Source of the DNA: Candidatus Rifleibacteriota bacterium
GTDB lineage: Bacteria; Muiribacteriota; Ozemobacteria; Ozemobacterales; Ozemobacteraceae
Reading direction: 5' to 3'
NCBI GenBank assembly: GCA_051747585.1
Contig: JBNJGH010000091.1
Coordinates: forward strand, 1-13,190
DNA length: 13,190 nt
Part shown: one piece after another, positions 1 to 13,190 of the stretch
Numbering within the stretch: the stretch's first letter is position 1
Layout: each line of letters begins with the position of its first letter
Program-made: the position numbers and the translations under genes
The notes under the pieces: model-generated
Seen by the model: only the letters and a program-made list of their open reading frames with translations
Database searches by the model: none
What the model was told of the DNA's origin: nothing

Positions 1-76
1 CCATCGCGACCTTCACGAAGCCGACGGTGTCATAAAAGGAATAAACAGCCTGATTTACCCGGTCAAATTCAAATAA
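1..76 (+). CDS. 3' end of an upstream gene, truncated by the window edge (...HRDLHEADGVIKGINSLIYPVKFK*)
   Basis: Frame starting at nt 2 is open to TAA at 74-76 and is followed by a palindromic repeat. Too short to assign a function or be sure it is coding. Confidence 0.4.
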   Translation, partial: HRDLHEADGVIKGINSLIYPVKFK

Positions 77-83
77 AAACAAC

Positions 84-122
84 GAGATTGCTTCGTCGGC
101 CAAAGCCCGCCTCGCAATAACA
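84..122. repeat. REP-like palindromic repeat, copy A (AGATTGCTTC...TCGCAATRACA type)
   Basis: GAGATTGCTTCGTCGGCCAAAGCCCGCCTCGCAATAACA. ATTGC and GCAAT can pair. Shares both ends with the copy at 7680-7723. Confidence 0.65.
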
Positions 123-172
123 ACGATTACAAGCAAGAGCTCCGCTCAATGACCAATAATATAATGACTGAA

Positions 173-742
173 TTATTGCTTCTTTATTTTTTCGATTAAT
201 TCATTCGGAGTTTTGGCAAACTCAAATAATTCAAAATGCTCCGGTTTTATCGTTTTTTCTGCAAGACCGTGCTGCAGCATTTTCAGCAAGGGCTCGAAAT
301 AATTATTAAGGTTAAAAACAAACATTGGCTTGTTATGCCGCTTTAACTGTTTCATGGCAAGCAAATCGAAAAATTCATCGTAGGTCCCTATCCCACCGGG
401 AAAAACAAGTATTACATCTGAGTAATCCAACATCAGTTGTTTACGATCGCGCAGATCTTTTGCCAAATAAACCTTATCAAGCAATTCATGCTTTATACCA
501 CGCTCAACCATGTATTCGGGTATAACTCCGAAAAGTTGGCCACCGGCATTCTTGTGAGCATCGGCAACAACTTTCATTAAGCCACAGGTAGTTCCGCCAT
601 AAAGCAGATTATAACCGTTTTTTGCAAGCAAACCCGCCATTTGAGCAGCCGACTTTTTTATTTCTTGAGAAACATCCGCACTGGAAGAACAAAAAACACA
701 TACTGTCAGGCCATTATTTTGATTTTCGCTGTATATATTCAT
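173..742 (-). CDS. LOG family (TIGR00730-like) nucleotide 5'-monophosphate phosphoribohydrolase
   Basis: Motifs VCVFCSSS, LLYGG..GLM, GVIP, RK..M and the signature PGGxGTxxE (PGGIGTYDE). I chose the ATG at 742 (189 aa) because the track's TTG at 778 lies in a -35 box. Confidence 0.9.
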   Translation of the reverse strand: MNIYSENQNNGLTVCVFCSSSADVSQEIKKSAAQMAGLLAKNGYNLLYGGTTCGLMKVVADAHKNAGGQLFGVIPEYMVERGIKHELLDKVYLAKDLRDRKQLMLDYSDVILVFPGGIGTYDEFFDLLAMKQLKRHNKPMFVFNLNNYFEPLLKMLQHGLAEKTIKPEHFELFEFAKTPNELIEKIKKQ

Positions 743-749
743 AAGCAGC

Positions 750-778
750 ATTATAAAATCTGCCGCTCGATAGCGCAA
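750..778 (-). promoter_or_regulatory. sigma70-type promoter for the LOG gene, possibly leaderless
   Basis: Minus strand reads TTGCGC-17 nt-TATAAT-7 nt-ATG(742). No Shine-Dalgarno. Confidence 0.6.
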
Positions 779-935
779 TAAAAACTAGAATGCGGACAAT
801 TTATTTTTTCCTAAAAGAGGAATTGTTCCGCGGAATTATGCACAATAAAATCCCCAGCACTATTTAATCCTCTAATTATCCTCTATGTTTTATATAGCCG
901 TTTTTTCGCCAATGTCAATAGCAAAATTTTTGTTA

Positions 936-2429
936 CTAATAATCTCTTGGTTTGTACTGCTCGAAAGCTTTTTTATCGAAAGCTCTTCTAAAGGCTTCCT
1001 GAGGCAGTATTTTTCTTTGTTTAACCAGATCCATCAGCGACTGATCCATTGTCTGCATTCCTGCCTGTTTGCTGGTCTGCATAATAGACGGCAACTGAAA
1101 TGTTTTGTTGTCACGAATAAGGTTTGATACCGCAGGGGTATTTATAAGAATTTCCAGGCAACACATGCGACTCATGCCATCGATAGTTGGGATCAGCTGC
1201 TGGGCAATGATTCCCTGCAGCGCATCGGCCAGCTGTGTTCTGATCTGATCTTGTTGATGAGCCGGGAAAACGTCGACAATACGGTCAACAGACTGCGCAG
1301 CCGACGGAGTATGCAAAGTAGCAAAAACAAGATGCCCTGTTTCAGCTGCAGTTACCGCCAGAGATATGGTTTCATAGTCACGCAATTCGCCGACGAGAAT
1401 TATGTCAGGATCTTCACGCAATGCAGATTTCAGCGCATTGGCGAAGCTCCTGGTATTTGGACCAATTTCGCGTTGATTAACCAGGCAACCCTTGTGCCTA
1501 TGCACGAACTCGATAGGGTCTTCAATTGTCAATATGTGCTCCTGGCGCTCACTGTTTATCTGATCGACCATGGCCGCCAGAGTAGTAGATTTACCAGATC
1601 CGGTGGGTCCGGTAACAAGCACCATTCCCTTGTTTCTTCTTGCGAGGTCGCCTAGAACCGAGGGCAATTTAAGCTCAGCCAGCGACTTGATTTCAGTGGG
1701 AATAACACGAAAAACCGCACCCATACCAAGTCTCGTATAGAACAAATTGCACCTGTAACGTGCGACATCTTCGAGCTCATAAGAGATATCCAACTCGAGA
1801 TGATCTTCGAGACGAGCTCGCTGATCATTATCCAGGAACTGAAAAATCAGACGCCTTGTGTCTTTAGCAGATAAAATCGGCAGATCGGTTGGCCAGAGCT
1901 TGCCCTGCAAGCGAAGCATTGGTGGCGAACCAACAGCCAGGTGTAAATCAGAGCCTTGTTTTTCAACAATAAGCCTTAAAAGATCATCGATACTGTAGTC
2001 TTCGGCATTCGGGCCAGCCTTTGAAGAGGCGGCAGATTTTGAAGCTGCCGGCGGGCGTGCAGGTTGCTGCGACGATGGTGGCGGGTTTTGCGGAACACCC
2101 GTAGGTCTGCTTTGCTGAGAAGGAGCGCCTGGCTGCTGGGGCCTGGCAGGAGCGCCTGAGGGAGCAGAGGGTCGAGCCGGCCCCTGCTGTCCTGGTGCGG
2201 GTCGGCCAGATGGCCTGGCAGGCTCGCCTGGTCGGGCGGGTCCATTCGGCTGTGGCTTCGACGGCTGCGCCGGGCGCTGTTGAGGACGCGCAGGCTGTTG
2301 CGGCCTTGCGGGCGTCGAAGAACCGGCAGGTTTAGATGCAGGTGGTTTAGGGCTCCGAGGCTTTTTTTCGTCCCCGGAATTTTCATCAGAATTTCCGCCA
2401 AATAGTTTTCCAAAAAAATTATCACTCAT
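936..2429 (-). CDS. pilT: Type IV pilus retraction ATPase PilT with a long Pro/Gln/Ala-rich N-terminal extension
   Basis: SDLHL; Walker A GPTGSGKSTT; Asp box TIEDPIE; Walker B LREDPDIILVGELRD; His box TGHLVFATLH; AIRNLIRE-like motif AVSNLIRD; C-terminal GMQTMDQSL. PilT core starts near residue 146. Confidence 0.93.
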   Translation of the reverse strand: MSDNFFGKLFGGNSDENSGDEKKPRSPKPPASKPAGSSTPARPQQPARPQQRPAQPSKPQPNGPARPGEPARPSGRPAPGQQGPARPSAPSGAPARPQQPGAPSQQSRPTGVPQNPPPSSQQPARPPAASKSAASSKAGPNAEDYSIDDLLRLIVEKQGSDLHLAVGSPPMLRLQGKLWPTDLPILSAKDTRRLIFQFLDNDQRARLEDHLELDISYELEDVARYRCNLFYTRLGMGAVFRVIPTEIKSLAELKLPSVLGDLARRNKGMVLVTGPTGSGKSTTLAAMVDQINSERQEHILTIEDPIEFVHRHKGCLVNQREIGPNTRSFANALKSALREDPDIILVGELRDYETISLAVTAAETGHLVFATLHTPSAAQSVDRIVDVFPAHQQDQIRTQLADALQGIIAQQLIPTIDGMSRMCCLEILINTPAVSNLIRDNKTFQLPSIMQTSKQAGMQTMDQSLMDLVKQRKILPQEAFRRAFDKKAFEQYKPRDY

Positions 2430-2431
2430 AA

Positions 2432-4099
2432 TCAGAACAATCTCATAAATTCATCAAGACTTGTTTCACCAGCCAGCAACATTTCGAGTGCTTGCTGCTC
2501 AAGACTTTTAATGCCCTGTTTTCGGGCAAAATTATCAAAATCCTGGTAGCACTGTTTATTAATTATCATCTGCCTTAAAGTCGGGCTATCAGGAATAAAC
2601 TCTATTAATAAGACACGACCGGAATAACCTGTATTATTACAGCCTTCGCAGCCTTTAGCGACAAAAATCTTCTTCTGTTCAGCGTCTGCCGGAACCCTTG
2701 TTTTAAGCTCTTCAGGCATATCAATTTCTTCACAACAATTCTTACATATTTTTCTTACAAGACGCTGACAAAGGAATCCGCAGAGAGAGGAAGCCGCCAC
2801 CACAGGATCAACACCGGTCTGAATAAGCTTCACGATAGAACTCGGTGCGTCGTGAGCAAGGAATGAAGTTAACAAGGTCTTACCGCCAAGGCCGGCGAAA
2901 CCGATTTCTTCAGCCAAAGTCCGGCCATTGAGCTGATCTACGTAAATAATGTCGGCATCTAGAAGCAAAGCAAGCTTCAACCCCTGAACATGATCCATTA
3001 CCCCACCAGTGCCAACCTGAATCTGGGTTGTCCGCGGCAAGGTAGCTATAACCGGCTCTTCAACCGTAACAATTTTTTTGCTGTCGGCATTGTAGCTGCT
3101 TAATAGACAATATTGCGAGGTAGTTCTACCCGACTCTCGAGGGCCGGTAACATATAAAACTCCGTGAGTGGTATGCAAAGTGCGCCCAATTTTTTCAAGC
3201 TCACCTTGAACTGCCTGACCAAGCTGCTCGGTTATAGAACCAAAGTCACTCAGCTTGAGAATAACCATTTCACCATTAATTGTCGGATAAAAAATCGATT
3301 GAATATTTACCTGCCGATTAGAAACGGTTACTCTAAAATGCCCGACCTTCACCGTATCTTTGGGTGGTTCATTTTCAGCAATTTGCGAAAGTTTTTTGAG
3401 GCGCAGCAAAACTTCGTGATGTACCTTCATTGGCACTTCGATTTTACGCGACAAAACATCGTTAGATCTAAACCTGATCAGCACACCCTTTTCGGACGGT
3501 TCAAAATGAATACGATTAACCCGGTTGATTATTGCCTGACCGAGAATATAGTTGATGACCTTTTCGGGGCCTTCCATACCTTTTGGAATTCCCCGTTCGA
3601 GATTCTGTTTTTCGCTACTGTCAAGCTTGTCGAAATTCTGAGCTGAAACCTTATCATCAACATTTATGGGGCCATAAACAGCGCCATAAGTCTGCTCAAA
3701 GTCAAAAAGGGTACATATAGATACAGAAACATTAACCCCGTATTTTCCTTCGAGATATTCGACAGGCCTTGAATCAAGCGGATCAACCATACAGACACTC
3801 AATTGATTGCCGGCCTTGTAAAGTGGCATCAGCCGGTTATCAAGAGCAAACTCAGGGGTTACCATCTGAACTACTTCATTATCGACTATTCCCGGATTAA
3901 GATGGATAAAAGATATATTGAGCTGGTTTCCCAATGCCCATATAATATCATCTTCTGTTACAAGACCCATCTCAGAAAGAGCTTCACCCAGCTTGAGCCC
4001 CTTTTCTCGCTGGAAAGATAATGCCTGTTTAAGCTGCTCTTCCGAGATCAGGTTACAGTCTATTAAAATATCACCAAGACGTTTTTTCTGCGTATTCAT
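2432..4099 (-). CDS. PilB/GspE-family protein with N-terminal MshEN domain and degenerate ATPase motifs
   Basis: Two 24-aa MshEN repeats, IHFEP, QRLVRKICKNC and GCEGCNNTGYSGR identify the family. Walker A reads GPRESGRTT and Walker B reads LLLDADIIYVDQLN. ATG at 4099 (555 aa) preferred over GTG at 4126. Stop is 2 nt upstream of the pilT ATG. Confidence 0.88.
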   Translation of the reverse strand: MNTQKKRLGDILIDCNLISEEQLKQALSFQREKGLKLGEALSEMGLVTEDDIIWALGNQLNISFIHLNPGIVDNEVVQMVTPEFALDNRLMPLYKAGNQLSVCMVDPLDSRPVEYLEGKYGVNVSVSICTLFDFEQTYGAVYGPINVDDKVSAQNFDKLDSSEKQNLERGIPKGMEGPEKVINYILGQAIINRVNRIHFEPSEKGVLIRFRSNDVLSRKIEVPMKVHHEVLLRLKKLSQIAENEPPKDTVKVGHFRVTVSNRQVNIQSIFYPTINGEMVILKLSDFGSITEQLGQAVQGELEKIGRTLHTTHGVLYVTGPRESGRTTSQYCLLSSYNADSKKIVTVEEPVIATLPRTTQIQVGTGGVMDHVQGLKLALLLDADIIYVDQLNGRTLAEEIGFAGLGGKTLLTSFLAHDAPSSIVKLIQTGVDPVVAASSLCGFLCQRLVRKICKNCCEEIDMPEELKTRVPADAEQKKIFVAKGCEGCNNTGYSGRVLLIEFIPDSPTLRQMIINKQCYQDFDNFARKQGIKSLEQQALEMLLAGETSLDEFMRLF

Positions 4100-4107
4100 A
4101 CTGAAAT

Positions 4108-4136
4108 AATTTACCTGAACTGCCACTGTTGAGCAA
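4108..4136 (-). promoter_or_regulatory. Possible sigma70 promoter for the pilB-like/pilT pair
   Basis: TTGCTC-17 nt-TAAATT-8 nt-ATG(4099). Partial consensus only. Confidence 0.35.
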
Positions 4137-4187
4137 GTTTTTATTCGAATAAAATATTGAATTTACAAATAAAACACTTATTGCTGT

Positions 4188-4222
4188 AAAAAAATAAAGG
4201 CCGCCTCACAATGGAAGCGGCC
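4188..4222 (-). terminator. Intrinsic terminator of hup
   Basis: Minus strand GGCCGCTTCCATTGTGAGGCGGCC hairpin followed by TTTATTTTTTT, 14 nt after the HU stop codon. Confidence 0.8.
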
Positions 4223-4236
4223 ATTCTTGCGTAAAA

Positions 4237-4518
4237 CTATTTCTTTTTGTTGATCATTTCTCTTAGATCTTTACCAGGTCTGAATTTTGCTACTTTACAT
4301 GCCGGAATTTTGATGGGTTTTTTGGTCTGAGGGTTGATTCCTGTTCTGGCCTTACGTTGTGTTACCAGAAACGAACCAAAACCGACCAGTCGCACATCAT
4401 CAGACTTTTTCAAAGCTTTTTTAATAATGTTTAATGTTGCGTCTAAAGCTTGATTGGCCTGAGTCTGGGTCATGTTTGTTGTTTTTGCGATTTCACGCAC
4501 GAGTTCGATTTTTTTCAA
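4237..4518 (-). CDS. hup: DNA-binding protein HU
   Basis: 93 aa, basic, with VRLVGFGSF, RKARTGINPQT, IKIPA and FRPGKDLRE. TTG start with strong SD AGAGGAGG at 4528-4535. Confidence 0.95.
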   Translation of the reverse strand: MKKIELVREIAKTTNMTQTQANQALDATLNIIKKALKKSDDVRLVGFGSFLVTQRKARTGINPQTKKPIKIPACKVAKFRPGKDLREMINKKK

Positions 4519-4563
4519 TTTTTGGATCCTCCTCTAACTTAGTTGAGAACTGAAGTTAAAAAA

Positions 4564-4592
4564 ATCGTACCAGCACTTTAAACCTTTGTCAA
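4564..4592 (-). promoter_or_regulatory. Strong sigma70 promoter for hup
   Basis: TTGACA (4592-4587), 17 nt spacer, TACGAT (4569-4564), with an extended -10 TG. Confidence 0.8.
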
Positions 4593-4608
4593 TGCTTTAG
4601 CGCAAAAT

Positions 4609-5784
4609 TTATCTTTTTAAATTGGTTAGATCTCGTAATTTCTGGCGTAAAGCCCTATGTTCTTTTCGCAAGGAAACCTGCTCAACCTGAATTCTGGACA
4701 AGGTTTTCTCCTGACTTGTCGACAAAGGAGCCCGCGATAAAATAGCCGAAATTTCCATTTCATTTTGCCTGATTTTACTCTGTATTCTCAACAACAGATT
4801 TCTATTATTGGCATATTCCCGCCTTAAGGAACGTTGATTTTTCAAAAGATTCTCTGAGCCTGGTTGGGCACCAAGTTCTTTTGTATAATCTTCATCTTTT
4901 TCAACACCGGCTTGAGAAGAGCCAATACTTTCCCCTTCTTTGAGTTGCTGCTCTCTTAAAAATTTTAAAAACCCGGAACGTTGTCGCACAATGATTTCTG
5001 GTTCTTCCCGGGTTTGATATTGCTGTTTTTCTTCAAGCTCTTTTTTTTCCGGACCAAAACTCATTTCATCTCTTATGTATTCAAATTCAATTTCAGGCTT
5101 TAATGGCGGCAAGCCTTTGGTTTTATCCGGGTCTCTGTCTTTAATTATTTCTGCATCATCTTTTACAAGTCTGCGATCCCCCCATTCACTTATGAGTGAC
5201 GCTTCAAGAGTTTCAGGGTTAAATTTTTCGGGTTCCTGAGCAACCTCATTTTTTCTATTAAGCCTGGAACGCATTCCCTTCTGCAAAACCAGCTGCCGAT
5301 CGCTTGAACCCTCTGCGGCTCTTAACGCAACAATTCCGGCAAAAACCCTTACCAATGCCTGACCATAGCGATCGACCTCGACATCGAAGGAAGTCCCGAG
5401 AACCGAACATGAACCCAGAGGAGTAAAAACTTTAAAAGCATCCGACCTGCGCCTTACCTTAAACCAGGCATAACCGAGCTTTAATTGAATACCATCACGC
5501 AAAACGGTAATCATAGCGTTTCTTTTAATTCTGACAACGGTTCCATCGGGGAACATCAACTCGCCGCGACCGGCTCCCTCGACATTAATTCGGTCGCCGG
5601 GCTGCACCTCTACCGGCTGTATTTCTTGTAAAGCCAACCAGTTCGCGCCATCATTCCTGGAAAGCACTGCCCGGCCGGCAAGTTTTCTAAAAATAAACTT
5701 ATTATGCTGTCCTTCAACTGTTAGAGTGCCTGCAAACAATAATGCAAGAACAGCAAAAAACCTTAAAAGATAATTATATTTCAT
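4609..5784 (-). CDS. Secreted FecR-domain protein with C-terminal coiled coil
   Basis: Signal peptide MKYNYLLRFFAVLALLFAGTLTVEG. FecR-like pattern GDRI..ELMFPDGTVVRI...FKVFTPLGSCSVLGTSFDV. Charged helical C-terminus. ATG at 5784 follows GGTGGT; the track start is GTG at 5793. Confidence 0.78.
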   Translation of the reverse strand: MKYNYLLRFFAVLALLFAGTLTVEGQHNKFIFRKLAGRAVLSRNDGANWLALQEIQPVEVQPGDRINVEGAGRGELMFPDGTVVRIKRNAMITVLRDGIQLKLGYAWFKVRRRSDAFKVFTPLGSCSVLGTSFDVEVDRYGQALVRVFAGIVALRAAEGSSDRQLVLQKGMRSRLNRKNEVAQEPEKFNPETLEASLISEWGDRRLVKDDAEIIKDRDPDKTKGLPPLKPEIEFEYIRDEMSFGPEKKELEEKQQYQTREEPEIIVRQRSGFLKFLREQQLKEGESIGSSQAGVEKDEDYTKELGAQPGSENLLKNQRSLRREYANNRNLLLRIQSKIRQNEMEISAILSRAPLSTSQEKTLSRIQVEQVSLRKEHRALRQKLRDLTNLKR

Positions 5785-5945
5785 TTTTACCACCGAATAT
5801 CACAAGTATTAATCGCCAATTATACAGCATATTCTTACAAAAATAACCCCGCAAATCAAACAAAAACCAGGAATTCTCGGTCAATTATTATTAGCTGGTT
5901 ACAAAAAGTTCTGGTTTTATTTCTTTCTGTCAAATATAGAATTTA

Positions 5946-6187
5946 AACCACTGAGGTCACCGAGGGCACAGAGTTGATTTTTTAATCTTTTTCAGCCAGG
6001 ATTTGTCCTGTGGACAAATAGCCGGCGGTTTTACCGCCCGGCTTTTCCTTCTTCAGCAAGCCTTCAGAAAAACACGAGTGGTTTTCTGAAGGCTTGCTGA
6101 AGAAGGAAACAATGGCTGAAAAAAATTCTCTGTGTTCTCTGTGCGCTCTGTGGTTATTTTCTTTGTGGCTTTGAGACTTGGTGTGAG
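5946..6187. repeat. Composite nested inverted-repeat element (MITE/REP-like or structured RNA)
   Basis: Outer 28-nt imperfect IR 5946-5973/6128-6155 (22/28). 11-bp IR 5988-5998/6113-6123. Hairpins 6001-6019 and 6020-6043. Perfect 28-bp IR 6044-6071/6082-6109. Period-8 triad at 6161-6183. Confidence 0.8.
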
Positions 6188-6374
6188 GAATTTTCTTTTC
6201 TGAAACCAACTGATGGTCGCTGACCGAGAATTGCTGAACAAAAACCCCTTGCTTGCAGCTAATTTAAGTCTATGTTAATATTTTCAGAACTTACTTCGAG
6301 GTCCTGATTCAAATTTGAGCTGCTATTTGTCGATGCTCTAAAAAGGAATATAGTCAGCAACAAGGAAATTAATT

Positions 6375-6512
6375 ATGGAAAATAACGAAAACAATGAAAT
6401 AAACCAGCAGCCTCCCAAGCTTGACCCGGCAAAAGAAACAAAACAAAAAATAATATTTTTTGTTGTAGCTGTAATAGTACTTCTGGTTCTAAAATCTTAT
6501 CTGGGCCAATAG
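6375..6512 (+). CDS. 45-aa single-pass membrane microprotein (not in ORF track)
   Basis: MENNENNEINQQPPKLDPAKETKQKIIFFVVAVIVLLVLKSYLGQ*. SD-like AAGGA at 6362-6366, a 14-residue hydrophobic run flanked by Lys, and a terminator immediately downstream. Confidence 0.7.
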   Translation: MENNENNEINQQPPKLDPAKETKQKIIFFVVAVIVLLVLKSYLGQ

Positions 6513-6517
6513 ATACT

Positions 6518-6563
6518 AAAAAACAGCCGACGTAAACATATAAAGTTTGCCGGCTGTTTTTTT
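6518..6563. terminator. Bidirectional intrinsic terminator
   Basis: AAAAAACAGCCG (6518-6529) / CGGCTGTTTTTT (6551-6562) with inner GTAAAC/GTTTGC pairing, between convergent stops at 6512 and 6581. Confidence 0.8.
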
Positions 6564-6580
6564 GTTAGCAAATTGTTAGC

Positions 6581-7498
6581 TTATTGTTTTTTATCTGCTA
6601 CTTTTGCCAGGCTATCCATCGCAGTTTTAAACTCCTGCGCCGGAACATCGAGTACTATTCGAGCAAGATGCTCTCTATTATCTTGAATTTTTGCCTTTTC
6701 CAGCATTGAAGCAAATTCCGGAACAGAAGCTGTCCAGCCTTTAAAAGCATCGAGAAAGTTCTGCAGTCCCGCTACGAATTCCGGTAGCTCATTCTTTTTA
6801 TTTACGAGTCCGGTAAAATGGAAATTGAATTTTTTATCATAACTCAAGGCAAAAAAACCGGTTGATAAATTATTCAAACCCGTAACAGGAACTTTAATAT
6901 TTTTTTCCCAGCCGGTTCCGGCAAGAACTGTTCCCCAGATATTCGCGTCAGTATCGACCCGGCGGATCATGTGGGCAAAGGCGCGATTACCAATAATGCT
7001 TTTATCTCTACGAAGATTGGCTATTTTTTTAAGCACAGTTTCTTTAGCAAAAGCAACTGCGTGTTTATTGAGAAACATCATATTGGCATCAGGGTTTTTG
7101 TTATTTTTTACCGCCTGAAGACCGGCAATTTTGCTTATAGTAAATTTCCCGGCAATTTCAGAATCAGTTTGAATAAGTCGAGAAATTTCATTTGAATCAA
7201 AATTTCCGCTGACTAGAACTCCAACTTCGTTATTGGAAGTCATGAAAACAGTAACATTGCGAATGTCTTTTGCAGGGTTAATGCCTGATCTTTCATAAAA
7301 ATCGGTATAATCTTTCTGCCCGGTTTTAAAGTGCTCATCGACCAACGCTTTTAACTCAGGTTGGGCAAGAATAGAATTCAAATCAAAATTCACAAGCAAA
7401 TAAGCATCTGCGGGAACCAGAGACAACAGGTTATTGGAAAATCCTGTAAGGCCAACCATAAGAAAAGCCATTAATAGAAACAAAGTTCGTAATTTCAC
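6581..7498 (-). CDS. Secreted/periplasmic hypothetical protein (305 aa)
   Basis: GTG start with SD AGGAGG (7507-7512) and N-terminal signal peptide. LLSLVPADAYLLVNFDL is reminiscent of DUF3352-like N-termini (from recall, unverified). Confidence 0.8.
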   Translation of the reverse strand: MKLRTLFLLMAFLMVGLTGFSNNLLSLVPADAYLLVNFDLNSILAQPELKALVDEHFKTGQKDYTDFYERSGINPAKDIRNVTVFMTSNNEVGVLVSGNFDSNEISRLIQTDSEIAGKFTISKIAGLQAVKNNKNPDANMMFLNKHAVAFAKETVLKKIANLRRDKSIIGNRAFAHMIRRVDTDANIWGTVLAGTGWEKNIKVPVTGLNNLSTGFFALSYDKKFNFHFTGLVNKKNELPEFVAGLQNFLDAFKGWTASVPEFASMLEKAKIQDNREHLARIVLDVPAQEFKTAMDSLAKVADKKQ

Positions 7499-7551
7499 GG
7501 TGAAATCCTCCTGAAAAAAAATAGGACTATAATTATTTCGCTGTTTATAAG

Positions 7552-7581
7552 ATTTTACGCTGATTTGCCCTTTTTAGTCAA
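7552..7581 (-). promoter_or_regulatory. Possible sigma70 promoter for the 6581-7498 gene
   Basis: TTGACT-18 nt-TAAAAT on the minus strand. Confidence 0.45.
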
Positions 7582-7679
7582 TTTTTTGCAAATCCACGGC
7601 ATTAATTATCCATTTATTGATACTAGCAAGTTTCAAGACATTTTTGTTTTTTATTAAACATTAAAATTTAGAATATCAA

Positions 7680-7741
7680 AGATTGCTTCTTCGTTCTGCT
7701 TCGCAGAACTCATCGCAATGACAATCAAGGGCTGTCATTGC
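7680..7741. repeat. REP-like palindromic repeat, copy B, plus an inverted partial copy
   Basis: AGATTGCTTC-TTC-GTTCTGC TTC GCAGAAC-TCA-TCGCAATGACA (7680-7723). TGTCATTGC at 7733-7741 is the perfect inverse of 7715-7723. Confidence 0.7.
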
Positions 7742-7765
7742 TGCATATCTACTCGAAAAGCGTGG

Positions 7766-7832
7766 CCCGATCCCGATACCGAACTGCGATCTTTGTTCGG
7801 ATGTCGCTATCGCTATTGATATCGGAATCGAT
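7766..7832. repeat. Inverted pair of degenerate hexamer (ATCGnn) tandem arrays
   Basis: CCCGAT CCCGAT ACCGAA (7766-7783) faces GTCGCT ATCGCT ATTGAT ATCGGA ATCGAT (7803-7832). 7768-7780 versus 7818-7830 match 11/13 as an IR. Confidence 0.6.
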
Positions 7833-7862
7833 AGATCGCCCCAACAGATGAAAGTTTTACAT

Positions 7863-7892
7863 TAGACAATATAAAGACAGCATTGTTATAAT
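7863..7892 (+). promoter_or_regulatory. sigma70 promoter with extended -10 for the prepilin operon, possibly leaderless
   Basis: TAGACA (7863-7868), 18 nt spacer, TATAAT (7887-7892) preceded by TGn, then 7 nt to ATG(7900). No SD. Confidence 0.6.
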
Positions 7893-7899
7893 TGACTTC

Positions 7900-10182
7900 A
7901 TGCAGTGGCTTGCCTTAAAAAAACGGGGAAACATTACCATTATACTTTTAGGTCTTGTAAGTATAATGGTAATAATGGTTTTCGCCCTGTCCAGAAGGAT
8001 GAGCGGACACACTCAGTTATTGACGCTGAGTGATCAAACCCAGATTACCCGATATTTTCTTGAATCTTACGCAGGTGATGTCTTGCAACAAATCACCGCC
8101 TCAGCTAACAAGCTTGATTCAGATAATTTTAAAGTTTTTCGCGAAGCAGTGCGAAACCAGAATCTAGACACAGACTTCTACGAGCCATCTAACCTACTAA
8201 TAGAGCTATCAAACGAGCTTCAAACCGAAATCAAATTACCTCCCGAAATTGTATTCACTCAGGTAGAGAAACTTGATTATCCAACAGGTTACAGTTGCCC
8301 AAACAATTTTCTCGGCAAAGAAAAAAGAGGATTGCTCGAGATTATATGCAAAGCTCAATTCCAGGACCGTGAATACAAACTTAGAGTACAGTATCCATTC
8401 ACGGTGGTTATGCGACTTACTCCTGTAATCAAAGATTTTGTTCTTTTTGCAGATCAAATTGGACGCGAACAGGGACGTGACAAAATCGGTCCCGACGACA
8501 ACCTGAACATAATGTACACGAAAGACGGCGAACATCCTGAAATAATTGACTCGGAAATAATGTCAATAATGCCTCACCGAAGACTCCGACCCGGCATAAA
8601 ATACCGACCATTTATCATACAACCCGCATGGGCCCCCGCAGAGTTTGGCAACGCCGACCTAAGCGGAAAGGTTTATCTGGGTCCCTCAGACGAATCCGTT
8701 TTTCTCAACCTGGCCGGAGACAACCGGGAAATTGCAGAAACGAGTATGGGTGAGCTTTATCTCATTTCACCCGAAACTTTCAAAGTCGCTGACGAAAACA
8801 CTACTTTTGAGCATATAGGTGTTTTTATGAATCAAAATGGCGGTTTTACAAAAATGCTCGGCATGAATATACCATTAAAACACAGTCATATCGCTAAAAT
8901 GGGAGTAATGGGATTCTCTTATGAAATGGTTCCAGCGCTGGGAACAATCTTTGAAGGCTCTGCTTACGAACCTGAAGACTTTTTCAATTCCGGTGGTTCT
9001 TCCAGCGAGTTTTATCAGAAAATTAACAATTATGGTAAAGGTTTTTTAGCTATGGCCAGCGGTCTAAAACTAATGGGAATAAAACCGGAGGGAGGGACTC
9101 TGCCCGCACGTGAAATATATGGCAATGTTTTATCAAGATTCTTTGTCATGACTTTCTGGTGGCCTCCATCTGGGGGTGGTGAACCACTTAAATACGATGA
9201 ATCGAGAGGTTCTAACGATTTTCCCTCCAGAGAAGTTTTTGGGGCTACCACCTACCATTTTGAGCCGGAAAGTCCAGACCAGGAATACCAGGACTTTATG
9301 TCGCGAATGGTATCGGGAAAAAACTGGCTCCCCCGATCAGGCGATCCTCCCAAGGGTTTTCTTCCATACAACATAGACTCCAGAATCACTACGGGAAAAC
9401 AAGCTAGAGCTATTTTTGACCATAGCAATTTCAATGCAAACGATGGGTTTCAGGCTAAAAGCAATCTCGACGAACTGGGCAAAAAATGGTTTGGCGTAAG
9501 AGAACCGGGCGACTTATCACTCACCGAGCCTACGGGAATTGAAACGAGAGTAGGCAGGGTTTTTAACAGTGGCGAAGACTTTTTACAAACAGCCGGCATT
9601 GATGAGGGTAGATTTGATGTAAACGGCATAGTTTATGTTTCAGGCGACCTTGAGGTTCCACCGCTAACAATGACCAACGATAAAATTGGCGGAGGAGTAG
9701 TTCTGGTAGATGGAACAATCAAAATTGCAAATATTACCAGAGGCTACAATGTCGACACCGACACTCTGAACATAGGCGAAGTTGGCAATCTATATCAGAA
9801 ATGGAGCGAAGAAATTACCCAGGATAGTTTTCTTACCTTCGTTTCGTTAAAGGGTGAGCCCATTATGATCAAGGGCGAAGCGCTGATAGGAGTTCAGCTT
9901 GTTAACCTTAATGACCCCTTCGGGCGCCCTTACGACCAGGTTATCTGGAGCTCATCGGTAAATAAAGAAATTTTATTCTGTGGCGGAATTGCTTGTAATT
10001 ACCTGAATCTACCCGAAAGACTTAGAGAATTCGGTCGGATACAAAGTGCCTGCAACATACTTAAAGCACCTTTTTTTCTCTATCATTCGGCAATGGCCGC
10101 TGAAGAACCATCCCTCGCGGTTCAAATAATGGAAGACATGCGCGGCTACCGTTTAACCGCAGGAAAGGCCCAGGATGAGTAA
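7900..10182 (+). CDS. Large PilX/GspK-like minor (pseudo)pilin, 760 aa
   Basis: N-terminus KKRG|NITIILLGLVSIMVIMVFALS resembles a class III signal lacking Glu+5, as PilX/GspK do. Gly-rich beta-type repeats near the C-terminus (VNGIVYVSGDL, GGGVVLVDGTIKI). Overlaps the next prepilin gene by 8 nt. Confidence 0.6.
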   Translation: MQWLALKKRGNITIILLGLVSIMVIMVFALSRRMSGHTQLLTLSDQTQITRYFLESYAGDVLQQITASANKLDSDNFKVFREAVRNQNLDTDFYEPSNLLIELSNELQTEIKLPPEIVFTQVEKLDYPTGYSCPNNFLGKEKRGLLEIICKAQFQDREYKLRVQYPFTVVMRLTPVIKDFVLFADQIGREQGRDKIGPDDNLNIMYTKDGEHPEIIDSEIMSIMPHRRLRPGIKYRPFIIQPAWAPAEFGNADLSGKVYLGPSDESVFLNLAGDNREIAETSMGELYLISPETFKVADENTTFEHIGVFMNQNGGFTKMLGMNIPLKHSHIAKMGVMGFSYEMVPALGTIFEGSAYEPEDFFNSGGSSSEFYQKINNYGKGFLAMASGLKLMGIKPEGGTLPAREIYGNVLSRFFVMTFWWPPSGGGEPLKYDESRGSNDFPSREVFGATTYHFEPESPDQEYQDFMSRMVSGKNWLPRSGDPPKGFLPYNIDSRITTGKQARAIFDHSNFNANDGFQAKSNLDELGKKWFGVREPGDLSLTEPTGIETRVGRVFNSGEDFLQTAGIDEGRFDVNGIVYVSGDLEVPPLTMTNDKIGGGVVLVDGTIKIANITRGYNVDTDTLNIGEVGNLYQKWSEEITQDSFLTFVSLKGEPIMIKGEALIGVQLVNLNDPFGRPYDQVIWSSSVNKEILFCGGIACNYLNLPERLREFGRIQSACNILKAPFFLYHSAMAAEEPSLAVQIMEDMRGYRLTAGKAQDE

Positions 10183-10654
10183 GCTACGCAGAAAAGGCAT
10201 GTCCATGATCGAATTACTTGTCGGGGTAACCATTTTTGGCCTGGCAATGGTTCCTCTAATGTGGCTCGGCACTTCACAAACAAGAGGAGCCTATTCTATT
10301 GGCAAACACATGATGGCAGGTCAGATTGCCGCCAGCTTTCTTGACAGCCTGCTTGGACTGCCATTTGAAGACTGCCTCGAAAAAGTTAAAGAGCTTAAAT
10401 CGCAAGATAAAATTAAAGTGCTTGAAGATGAAAATCTGAAAAAAAGTTTGCAGGCAGTAGCAGATGACAGCGTCAAAAAAGATATGGAAGTTTCTTTCAA
10501 GCATTTTACTTATAAGTTTAACTATGCACTCGATGAAGACAATCGTATATTAAGACTTGATATAGAAGTGTTCTACCGGGTAGTTGAAGGGAAACCAGAC
10601 TCAGAGCAATCAACAAAACTTTCTGTTTTAAAGCACGGTGCAAAAATTGGTTAA
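10175..10654 (+). CDS. Prepilin-type N-terminal cleavage/methylation domain protein (minor pilin, PilV/GspI-like by size and context)
   Basis: RRKG|MSMIELLVGVTIFGLAMVPLMWLG: basic leader, Gly-1, Glu+5, hydrophobic helix. Confidence 0.85.
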   Translation: MSKLRRKGMSMIELLVGVTIFGLAMVPLMWLGTSQTRGAYSIGKHMMAGQIAASFLDSLLGLPFEDCLEKVKELKSQDKIKVLEDENLKKSLQAVADDSVKKDMEVSFKHFTYKFNYALDEDNRILRLDIEVFYRVVEGKPDSEQSTKLSVLKHGAKIG

Positions 10655-11216
10655 GAACAAAAGATTCAACAAATTTGGAGTAACAATGATGGAAATAGTT
10701 ATAGTTGCAGCTATTTCCAGCATGGTTCTGACCATGGCAATGCTCATAATGAATAGAACCACAAGACATTTTAAAAAAGGCACTGACATGCTTAACAACC
10801 AGCGACTGATGGACAACATCGTAGAGCGCATCAGAACCGATGTTAGGTCGCTAAAAAAGACGATAAATTCCGAGTGTAACGATATTTCATTTTCATTTTA
10901 TGCAATTCGCGATGGTGTTGAAAAAAAAATTCACTATCAATATGACGAAAATCGACAAACTCTTTATAGAAACGAAGAAGGCAAAGAAACAAATTTTCAC
11001 GGGGCCAAACAGGTAAAATCCTTTTTGTTTAAACCGGAATATGACAGCAACGGACGATTTAGATTTTTAAATGTGGTTATGCAACTTGTTTCAGATGATA
11101 AAAGCAATTCACAGGGAGGCGAGTCTACCCTGTCGATTGCCTGCCAATTTTATTCTACCTGTGTTGAAGCCGAACTCAACATAGCAAAAATAAGAGAAAA
11201 TAACGACGACAGTTAA
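10638..11216 (+). CDS. Prepilin-type protein (minor pilin, PilW/GspJ-like by context)
   Basis: KNKRFNKFG|VTMMEIVIVAAISSMVLTMAMLIM followed by the helix LMDNIVERIRTDVR. Start uncertain (GTG 10638 or TTG 10647). Confidence 0.82.
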   Translation: MQKLVKNKRFNKFGVTMMEIVIVAAISSMVLTMAMLIMNRTTRHFKKGTDMLNNQRLMDNIVERIRTDVRSLKKTINSECNDISFSFYAIRDGVEKKIHYQYDENRQTLYRNEEGKETNFHGAKQVKSFLFKPEYDSNGRFRFLNVVMQLVSDDKSNSQGGESTLSIACQFYSTCVEAELNIAKIRENNDDS

Positions 11217-11229
11217 CCGGAGGAGATTT

Positions 11230-12279
11230 ATGAAAAAAAGCAGAATTTTATTTTTAATACTAAGCTTTGTTTTTTCGTTGAACTTATTGTTTGCAGCAAG
11301 CGATGCATTAAAAAAGGGACGAGTCCTTGAAAGACAAAGCAAATACGAGCAAGCTCTTGAAGTTTATAAAAAAGCAATCAAACAAAACCCCACTGAGGCT
11401 CTTTATATCGAAGCCGCTGCACTGCTGGGCAAAATGCAGAAATACGAAAATGCCGGCAAAGTATTGGAGCTTGGCCTTAAAGATTTTCCCGATAGTAAAT
11501 CTTTAAAAAATCTGCTTGCTTTGATTATGGTTCGCACAAATCAGAACCAGAAAGCAATCAAACTATTAAAAGAAGTGCTGGAGGCTGACTCCGACAATGG
11601 ATTTGCTAAAAAATGGCTGGCAAAAATTGAGCCCACCGACGAAAGTTCCCCTGACACAACCCAACAAGAAGCGCATCAATCGGTTGACCAATCGCTTGAC
11701 AGCTCGACACCATCATCATCCCCGGACGGCGTCTATCGGGCCAGCAACGAGCTTCCCCTACAGGAACAGAAAGAACTGGCAAAAAAGCTTTATCAACAGA
11801 TGATGGGGCTGGAAAAATGGGAGCTGGATTATTTTAAAGATCTTCACAAAGAAGTTATCGAAAAATGCCCCGAGACCACTCAGGCCGAAGAATCGTGCTG
11901 GCGCTTGTCAAACCTTTATCTGCTTGGCGAAGATCCACCCAACTACCAGGCAGTGATAAATGTCTTAGAACATCTGCTCAAGCAGTATCCCGACACTCCA
12001 TTATTTCCTGATGCTAAAAATCGACTTCTTATTTCATATCAAAAAACGAACCAAACTGAAAAGGTTGTAGAATTGTACCAGGAACTTTTCACCCTCGACC
12101 CCGATCCGATTGACGACAAAGTCTTTATGGTGAGGGCTCTTGAATTCGCCGATGCGCTCAGATCAACCGGCAGAGAGGTTGATGCTCAAGCCTGGTATAT
12201 GAAAATAATTGAAAAAGATGATGGAAAAGGTTCACTTGAAGCAAGAGTAGCACGGCAGCGATTAGAGGGTGAAAACTAA
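11230..12279 (+). CDS. Secreted tetratricopeptide repeat protein
   Basis: SD GGAGGAG, signal peptide ending LFA|AS, TPR motifs (KYEQALEVYKKAIKQNP; NQKAIKLLKEVLEADSDN; VLEHLLKQYPDTP) and a Ser/Asp/Thr-rich central linker. Confidence 0.85.
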   Translation: MKKSRILFLILSFVFSLNLLFAASDALKKGRVLERQSKYEQALEVYKKAIKQNPTEALYIEAAALLGKMQKYENAGKVLELGLKDFPDSKSLKNLLALIMVRTNQNQKAIKLLKEVLEADSDNGFAKKWLAKIEPTDESSPDTTQQEAHQSVDQSLDSSTPSSSPDGVYRASNELPLQEQKELAKKLYQQMMGLEKWELDYFKDLHKEVIEKCPETTQAEESCWRLSNLYLLGEDPPNYQAVINVLEHLLKQYPDTPLFPDAKNRLLISYQKTNQTEKVVELYQELFTLDPDPIDDKVFMVRALEFADALRSTGREVDAQAWYMKIIEKDDGKGSLEARVARQRLEGEN

Positions 12280-12378
12280 CCCAGCCCTTACGCTTTGAGT
12301 CATTTTTTTGTTATGATTATTGTATAAACTCATCTATTGTGTACGAAACTTTTATTTCAGCTTTTCAGGGAGGGCAGA

Positions 12379-13190
12379 ATGAAATTATCAACTAAGAGAA
12401 GGATTTTAATTACGTTGTTTGCACTTTGGTTTGCAGTGCAACCTTTGGCCACGTCAGTGGTCTGGGCAAACGATGCAAATCCCCAGGATTCAATCCCCCA
12501 ACCTGAGTTAAACCCTGAGGGAATCGAAGGGATAGAAGATATTGACGAGATTTTGTCCCCCAATGAATATCTTGAATATATGCTATCCCTCAGAGGTAGA
12601 ACCAAAGAAGAACAGGAAGCAAAAACCTGGGGCGAATGGATGACAAGTCTGACAGGCGCTTACATGCTCATGGATGACGGCTGTACTGATGTATTCAGTT
12701 TTTATGGCGCAATGTCTCAAATGCAACCCCACATGGGTAGAACCCCATTTTATTTTAAAGCTGTAGCAAAATCATCGACAAAAGCCACGTTGGCTTTTTC
12801 CTTTATTGCAAACTCCGGCATAATCGGTGATATTGGCGGCGTAGTCAAAAACACAGGCAGCGCTATTGCCAACTCAAAGGTAGGCGAAGCGAGCAAATGG
12901 GCCGCCAGAGGGGTATCATCAGCCGCAAAATGGACCGGTGGTAAAATTGCAAACACCAGGATTTTTCAAAAAGGCGTTGGTTTTTTTCAACGCAAAGCTA
13001 ATCTTTTCAATGGCTTCAAAAAATCAGGCAAAATGTTTGCCCGAGCCCAGAGTATTTTCAGCGCAAAAAACACTTCTACTTTTTTAACTCACATGGCCCC
13101 CCCTTGCGGATATAGAGCAGGAGTAGGCGAAGGTTTTTATTCTTACTGGCGCTGGGTTGCCCGTAAAACGGGGCTTGAAAACGTGCAACG
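12379..13190 (+). CDS. Secreted hypothetical protein, 5' part (>=270 aa, runs off the window; not in ORF track)
   Basis: SD AGGGAGG, ATG at 12379, no stop to the window end. MKLSTKRRILITLFALWFAVQPLATSVVWA|NDAN is a Sec-type signal peptide. Confidence 0.85.
   Translation, partial: MKLSTKRRILITLFALWFAVQPLATSVVWANDANPQDSIPQPELNPEGIEGIEDIDEILSPNEYLEYMLSLRGRTKEEQEAKTWGEWMTSLTGAYMLMDDGCTDVFSFYGAMSQMQPHMGRTPFYFKAVAKSSTKATLAFSFIANSGIIGDIGGVVKNTGSAIANSKVGEASKWAARGVSSAAKWTGGKIANTRIFQKGVGFFQRKANLFNGFKKSGKMFARAQSIFSAKNTSTFLTHMAPPCGYRAGVGEGFYSYWRWVARKTGLENVQ

Follow-up and report, generated by a model that had tools for sequence, protein, structure and literature searches.

A catalytically eroded PilB paralog, probably non-hydrolysing, encoded directly upstream of pilT in Ozemobacteraceae

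Results

A PilB-fold protein encoded next to PilT

The window analysed here is a 13,190-nucleotide stretch of a Candidatus Rifleibacteriota genome (contig JBNJGH010000091.1, positions 1 to 13,190). It encodes a PilB-fold protein, referred to below as pseudo-PilB, that lies between an HU gene (hup) and a pilT gene; the features of this locus are given in Table 1. The reading frame is open from a GTG at 4126 to the TGA at 2432 on the minus strand, and residues are numbered from that GTG. In BLAST, the orthologs align from residue 10 (the ATG at 4099) onwards, in agreement with the start chosen in the first-pass annotation, a reading of the sequence made without database searches.

Table 1 Features of the pseudo-PilB locus
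Feature	Position	Strand	Basis
PilB-fold pseudo-ATPase gene	2432..4099	-	555 aa from ATG 4099
MshEN 53-residue c-di-GMP-type motif pair R16-Q68, with family-specific Trp63	3923..4081	-	NF053729 62.2 bits, cut-off 38
N2 Arg positions replaced: R257 to H263, R271 to Q276, R286 to K291 (G. metallireducens number first)	3254..3340	-	Alignment
Rebuilt P-loop GPRESGRTT, Lys to Arg	3119..3145	-	Sequence and ortholog counts
Asp box: invariant first Glu (E356); Ile (I360) in place of the Mg-binding last Glu	3047..3067	-	Alignment
Walker B region: Asp (D397) for Gly, Gln (Q398) for the catalytic Glu, pore-loop acids unconserved	2924..2968	-	Alignment
His box without His (G414, K416, L423)	2858..2887	-	Ortholog counts
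Tetracysteine zinc site, retained	2639..2746	-	Four Cys invariant wherever covered, 93-94/94 sequences
Partner pilT, all catalytic motifs intact, core about 936-2000	936..2429	-	TIGR01420 481.8 bits, cut-off 319
PilT N-terminal extension: short conserved FFGKLF-type start, then 82-175 residue Pro-rich linker	2001..2429	-	21 orthologs
Terminator-like hairpin in the hup-pseudo-PilB intergenic region	4199..4222	-	Consensus scan; 3 such sites vs 4.2 expected in shuffles
HU gene (hup), upstream neighbour in 22/23 loci	4237..4518	-	Conserved context

Pfam assigns T2SSE and MshEN domains to pseudo-PilB, and Geobacter PilB and Thermus PilF are its closest relatives among solved structures. An AlphaFold model built from a 120-sequence alignment (pLDDT 84.9, pTM 0.64) matched PilB cores best, with TM-scores of 0.87 for 5ZFR_B and 0.85 for 5TSH_E, and the N2D and RecA-like CTD fold with its tetracysteine zinc site is present. 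The protein scored 266.5 bits against TIGR02538 and 253.2 bits against TIGR02533, below the cut-offs of 675.65 and 630.25, respectively. In the protein matches, orthologs bear the names PilB, TadA or GspE, and motor counts in these genomes are inflated because of such annotations. Searches of plasmids and of the ESM Atlas with pseudo-PilB returned generic PilB/GspE matches only. A longer fused form was not found; one weak match of 1021 aa scores like ordinary PilB, which is weak evidence.

The catalytic residues were replaced by another conserved set

Residues were mapped by alignment to 5ZFR; an offset of 14 brings these positions into register with the G. metallireducens numbers used in PMC5424180. 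In that enzyme, E395 is the catalytic Glu, E357 is a Mg ligand replacing the absent Walker B acid, R271 and R286 sense phosphate, H420 is a gamma-phosphate ligand, R455 makes an open-interface contact, and D398 and E400 are conserved pore residues predicted to meet PilC (PMC5424180). Conservation was counted in 94 sequences, that is, the query and P0001-P0093; P0094 looks frameshifted and was dropped.

Every motif quoted in the first-pass annotation was found in the sequence. The Lys of Walker A is replaced by Arg, encoded by the AGA at 3127-3125 that it had singled out, and Lys occurs in 5 of the 94 sequences. Walker B reads LLLDADIIYVDQLNG, with Q398 at the place of the catalytic Glu as it had described; this Glu (E395) is kept in 1/94. 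The His box GGKTLLTSFL indeed lacks both His, and neither H413 nor H420 is retained in any sequence (0/94 at either position). The reported N2 motifs PPKDTVKVGH, NIQSI and VILKL are there as well, with R257, R271 and R286 retained in 0, 1 and 2 of the 94, respectively, and so are the conserved CKNC, CEGC and TGYSGR. The Asp box has to be read in another way. The change from EDP to EEP (TVEEPVIA) is present but of minor importance, as Asp persists at this position in 45/94 orthologs; what the box has truly lost is its last Glu, the Mg ligand E357, which is kept in only 4/94. A further substitution had gone unmentioned: the Walker B Gly is Asp in 93/94 sequences and Glu in the remaining one. No sequence keeps more than two of the seven main residues (Walker A Lys, E395, E357, H413, H420, R271 and R286). 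Canonical PilB controls from 21 matched genomes keep the catalytic residues in 21/21, and since the substitutions are also common to the orthologs, these losses are more than chance.

The replacement residues are themselves fixed (E331 in 94, R334 in 89, D397 in 93, G414 in 94, K416 in 92, H263 in 93 and Q276 in 91 of the 94 sequences), E356 and R455 are invariant (94/94), and position 398, the catalytic Glu site, varies freely. Most revealing is that the Asp box lost its Mg ligand while the canonical Walker B acid was regained. Together with the Lys to Arg replacement, this suggests that the pocket may hold Mg-ATP or be self-filled by charges. Judged by the biochemistry of the PilB family, pseudo-PilB very probably does not hydrolyse ATP, and binding of ATP without hydrolysis by the rebuilt pocket is possible. 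The lost closing Arg and the retained R455 suggest an open-like shape. The pocket also offers a natural experiment on why the Walker B of the PilB family has Gly.

The near-invariance of the new residues (E331, E356, D397, K416 and R334), and the coincidence of the loss of the E357 equivalent with the gain of the very acid that E357 normally replaces, would also fit a rewired, slow ATPase with a RecA-like set, in which the P-loop carries Arg, the first Asp-box Glu acts as base and the Walker B Asp as Mg ligand. We regard this as improbable: the two arginine fingers, the catalytic Glu and the two His have been lost, position 398 is unconstrained, and Lys to Arg is the classic change to binding without hydrolysis, as in Rad51 K191R, which binds ATP and is ATPase-deficient (PMC1919488). 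In addition, the change of the Walker B Gly to Asp or Glu is also found in other eroded motors of the same genome and may be a default of dead pockets.

The losses extend to surfaces outside the pocket. The pore-loop 1 acids are present as Asp in 28/94 and as Glu in 34/94 sequences, compared with 21/21 canonical controls. The Asp of ASDIH is Arg or Lys in 86/93, and the Arg of LRQDPD is kept in 5/94; both are invariant in canonical PilB, where we take them to form an inter-subunit contact. The loss of the conserved pore-loop acids disfavours a normal ring that thrusts PilC, and a normal PilC-engaging scaffold is thereby argued against. The same loss weighs against a passive pseudo-PilB ring, seated on the PilC platform, that would link the partner PilT to the machine, a role to which we give a low probability, even though ATPase-dead PilT does still bridge PilU in this manner (10.1101/634048; 10.1101/2025.10.30.685630; PMC11656802).

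Distribution and purifying selection

When 87 genomes of the phylum were searched with a profile (E<=1e-90, up to 22 candidates scored per genome), 48/51 genomes of the family gave a single stop-free match and the 36 other genomes gave none. The three family genomes without a match are 64-70% complete, and one of them holds a contig-edge fragment. Orthologs are named as proteins of Ca. Riflebacteria, Ozemobacteraceae or Ozemobacter, and identity to the query drops from 44% to 32% at the family edge. When 1.84 billion representatives were searched, the pseudo-PilB motifs were found in only 3 of the best 150 matches.

The first-pass annotation had proposed a maintained, catalytically dead paralog and had asked for evidence of selection and for a canonical pilB elsewhere in the genome. 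Nei-Gojobori estimates gave pN<pS in all 253 pairs of 23 genes, pairs that are not independent; in the 43 unsaturated pairs (pS<0.70) the median omega was 0.17 and the maximum 0.42, and the ATPase domain alone gave 0.008-0.033 in the three lowest-dN pairs. The substitutions are thus shared by orthologs under purifying selection, and none of the 94 is canonical. At least nine PilB/GspE paralogs with canonical Walker A and B are also present in the genome. The proposal is supported on both counts, with orthologs that are non-canonical and evolution that is non-neutral, "dead" being read from the residues. Pseudo-PilB is, by this evidence, a selected, catalytically eroded paralog, a predicted pseudoenzyme with active paralogs in its genome.

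Some features could point to a decaying duplicate. Pseudo-PilB evolves faster than canonical PilB in every domain (identity of 0.44-0.80 by domain, compared with 0.87-0.96, in the same 21 genomes), and it lies on a long stem, with no resolved sister, in trees that used eight and seven family members (the second without C111, C53, C74, L023 and eight P rows). Its best paralog BLAST match is a C1-type PilB (33%). Decay has next to no probability, being refuted by the omega values, far below 1 even in the ATPase domain, and by the stop-free presence in 48/51 genomes, and the new consensus is fixed.

A c-di-GMP-type MshEN motif is retained

The N-terminal domain has the MshEN layout of tandem 24-residue motifs with a 5-residue spacer and Arg/Leu/Gly...Leu/Leu/Gln contacts, and the contact residues, as their roles are defined in PMC5013675, are retained. 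Compared with V. cholerae MshE, pseudo-PilB has Asn for Gly18, Lys for Arg38, Glu for Asp41 and Ile for Leu54. From the biochemistry of the family, MshEN is likely, with good confidence, to bind c-di-GMP, and the query genome has 17 GGDEF matches above cut-off. It should be noted that the highest identity within the protein is that of the MshEN motif (0.80, compared with 0.60 in the ATPase domain), and that this ranking was rejected as proof of a receptor role because canonical PilB ranks its domains alike (0.96 vs 0.91).

Genomic context and the partner PilT

The pilT gene starts 2 bases past the stop of pseudo-PilB and lies directly downstream of it in 42/45 genomes with both matches; in the other three, the two genes lie on different contigs, and one of the genes is close to the end of its contig. 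The N-terminus of this PilT has a modest hydrophobic moment (0.28-0.55), so that a role as membrane anchor, by analogy with the MinD targeting helix, is only a guess.

The stretch from the hup terminator to the pseudo-PilB gene yielded no promoter-like site. A strong sigma-70-like promoter (10/12, extended TG) lies upstream of hup at 4564-4592 on the minus strand, and RNA-library contigs cover hup in 4/4 runs. These contigs, which are short and come from 4 of 8 listed runs in two studies, match pieces of pseudo-PilB in 2/4 and of pilT in 3/4 runs. They were rejected as evidence of co-transcription, as no contig spans both genes and carry-over of DNA is possible.

No pilin or pilC gene was recognised adjoining the pair, the nearest genes with an N-methylation motif being about 6 kb off on the other strand. 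At window positions 7900-12279 (+), genes for a 760-aa unknown protein, for two proteins bearing N-methylation (pilin-like) motifs and for a TPR protein may form a minor-pilin cluster. The query genome has six further PilC-like matches, counting the query. A canonical pilB-pilT pair is found on its contig C1 and in 20/20 relatives fetched, and pilus extension is therefore independent of pseudo-PilB.

With at least nine paralogs with canonical Walker A and B in the genome and the whole PilB architecture retained, including the zinc site and the C2 domain, pseudo-PilB might be a decoy or poison subunit that enters canonical PilB hexamers or soaks up their partners and so brakes extension; ATPase-dead motor alleles do poison their own ring when overexpressed (10.1101/634048). 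This is quite unlikely, as the linkage is to pilT rather than to canonical pilB, and as the non-catalytic invariant positions in ASDIH and LRQDPD have changed too.

A candidate c-di-GMP-gated partner of PilT

Given the fixed gene pairing, PilT is the likely client of pseudo-PilB. We propose, giving it an even chance, that pseudo-PilB is a c-di-GMP-gated, non-hydrolysing partner that recruits or restrains the co-encoded PilT. Binding of c-di-GMP to MshEN would switch whether the core is free for PilT, and binding of the core to PilT would time the arrival of PilT at the pilus base and the retraction of pili. The rebuilt pocket (Arg for Lys, Walker B Asp, E331, E356 and K416) would either hold Mg-ATP unhydrolysed or fix one shape through salt bridges. 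One point against such a partnership is that pilB-pilT adjacency is the ancestral layout of canonical operons, so that the linkage may be partly inherited. Others are that neither a pilin nor a pilC gene was recognised beside the pair and that co-transcription of Geobacter mshE and pilT3 was judged unlikely (PMC5065972).

As to the geometry, a stacked or side-on contact between pseudo-PilB and PilT seems, by analogy, at least as likely as a mixed ring. A mixed ring should not be assumed because Vibrio PilT and PilU form separate homohexamers (10.1101/634048). Action of a motor that has lost its ATPase has precedents in PilT K136A, which still supports PilU-driven retraction (10.1101/634048), and in the signalling of M. 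xanthus PilB K327A (PMC5544727).

Pseudo-PilB could instead work outside the motor cycle, as an apo-like locked c-di-GMP receptor for adhesion or EPS, with PilT in the same non-retraction task. ATPase-dead M. xanthus PilB K327A signals and promotes EPS without pili (PMC5544727), a Geobacter pilT3 mutant has delayed attachment and not the dense biofilms of a pilT4 mutant (PMC5065972), and the invariant R455 with the lost closing Arg fits an apo-like state. Such a receptor is nonetheless unlikely, given that the partner PilT keeps every motor motif and that no EPS or chemosensory gene is linked to the pair within the 1.5 kb flanks of 23 loci.

Similar pairs in other phyla

In a survey of 80 PilT loci from 1 of 64 parts of a genome collection, an eroded MshEN-PilB lies directly upstream of an intact pilT in at least 6/80 loci, some loci having little upstream DNA. 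These six are from Desantisbacteria, Gemmatimonadota (two), Eisenbacteria, Sumerlaeota and one unclassified lineage. Canonical PilB was upstream of pilT in 10/80, three of them apparently split.

Some features speak for kinship. Within the Riflebacteria family Trp63 is invariant; it also occurs in 5/6 of the outside eroded proteins, but in only 2/132 and 0/101 canonical domains. A tree of MshEN domains that included 52 canonical rows separates the 14 dead rows from the rest by a single branch (74/95.7, with the bootstrap unsettled) and groups Riflebacteria with Gemmatimonadota (99/94); with all 132 canonical rows the support was 78. The first His-box position is Lys or Arg also in three outside cores that align. 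Against kinship, four of the six outside proteins score higher on a canonical profile than on that of Riflebacteria; in the Desantisbacteria protein, the Walker A Lys and the Walker B Gly-Glu persist and Cys takes the place of the Trp; and the partner PilTs of the dead MshEN-PilB proteins are not one clade. The Desantisbacteria gene (L079:916-3549) encodes a GAF-GAF-MshEN-PilB protein with a partly eroded core and is followed by pilT and then by a canonical pilB; its erosion is common to the relatives P0295-P0302.

One ancient multi-phylum family of dead MshEN-PilB partners of PilT is plausible from these sequences. The fuller version, in which this old family, marked by the Trp of its second MshEN motif, would be a PilT-dedicated c-di-GMP retraction switch made from a dead extension motor and might even include Geobacter mshE-pilT3, is offered tentatively and is on the doubtful side. 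In a search from the Desantisbacteria protein, no Geobacter-named match was found among the 120 matches listed.

Relation to known systems

Pseudoenzymes are a known kind of protein, and what is new here is a natural pseudo-PilB tied to a PilT. The protein has the same order of domains (MshEN-N2D-CTD-zinc site) as the MshEN-bearing type IVa extension ATPases (G. metallireducens/sulfurreducens PilB 5TSH/5ZFR, V. cholerae MshE and T. thermophilus PilF; TIGR02538) and has in common with them the fold (TM-score 0.85-0.87, best chains of the solved core), the c-di-GMP motif and R455. Unlike them, it is without the hydrolysis residues and the pore-loop acids and has a dedicated PilT. A likeness in gene layout, on which alone the two are compared here, is seen in G. 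sulfurreducens mshE (GSU0435)-pilT3 (GSU0436), where a PilB-like gene is likewise directly upstream of an intact pilT and apart from the pilB-pilT4 operon (PMC5065972). In the accessible part of that paper, the two genes are judged unlikely to be co-transcribed and Geobacter MshE is handled as an ordinary ATPase, unlike pseudo-PilB.

That a dead motor fold can act as adaptor or signal is known from V. cholerae PilT K136A/E204A and M. xanthus PilB K327A; these are laboratory mutants of working motors, whereas pseudo-PilB is natural, selected and a separate gene. PilU, TfpB and CpiA are likewise extra proteins that tune the pilus motor; unlike pseudo-PilB, the first two are described as ATPases and the third as inhibiting PilB (PMC11656802). 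The accessible text of this accessory-motor review names no naturally inactive PilB paralog, and the MshEN architecture table (supplement 1), as far as it could be obtained, lists no inactive ATPase type. A search of the open literature gave no description of a degenerate, inactive or non-catalytic PilB paralog; for Riflebacteria, the accessible portions returned only general metagenome or taxonomy papers.

In the literature available to us, c-di-GMP control of type IV pili acts via the extension motor and cofactors, and the switching of the retraction motor is much less clear. If our proposal is true, a dead PilB fixed beside PilT would be a direct route from c-di-GMP to retraction. The pair would also serve as a test for mixed or stacked PilB-PilT assemblies, a matter that the accessible text of PMC11656802 (2024) leaves open for motor pairs.

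Other eroded or fused motor genes

The family Ozemobacteraceae appears to keep several dead pilus ATPases. In the query genome, G000:C111:4780-6351 (L051) encodes a GspE-like core, with an intact Walker A Lys and an eroded Asp box, Walker B and His box, to which a PilC-type T2SSF domain is fused; this fusion is present in 18/51 family genomes and eroded in 12/12 aligned. A second locus, G000:C24:18785-25232 (L052), carries two PilT/PilU-like genes with canonical Walker A/B, a HEAT/TPR gene, then a pair of eroded PilT-like genes and genes resembling pilins. The first of its eroded genes is found in 49/51 family genomes, and both are eroded in 14/14 loci aligned.

The 14 top outside profile matches (P0121-P0134; named members from Parcubacteria/Paceibacterota) are proteins of about 1000 aa with two tandem PilB/GspE modules. 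They were rejected as active-plus-dead fusions, both modules being canonical except for a Walker A Lys change in P0126, which also carries T2SSF domains; among the next 133 modules, 0 were degenerate. Finally, two further loci of the query genome, C39:10050-12851 and C31:4813-6645, encode PilT cores with N-terminal additions of about 535 and 255 residues, respectively.
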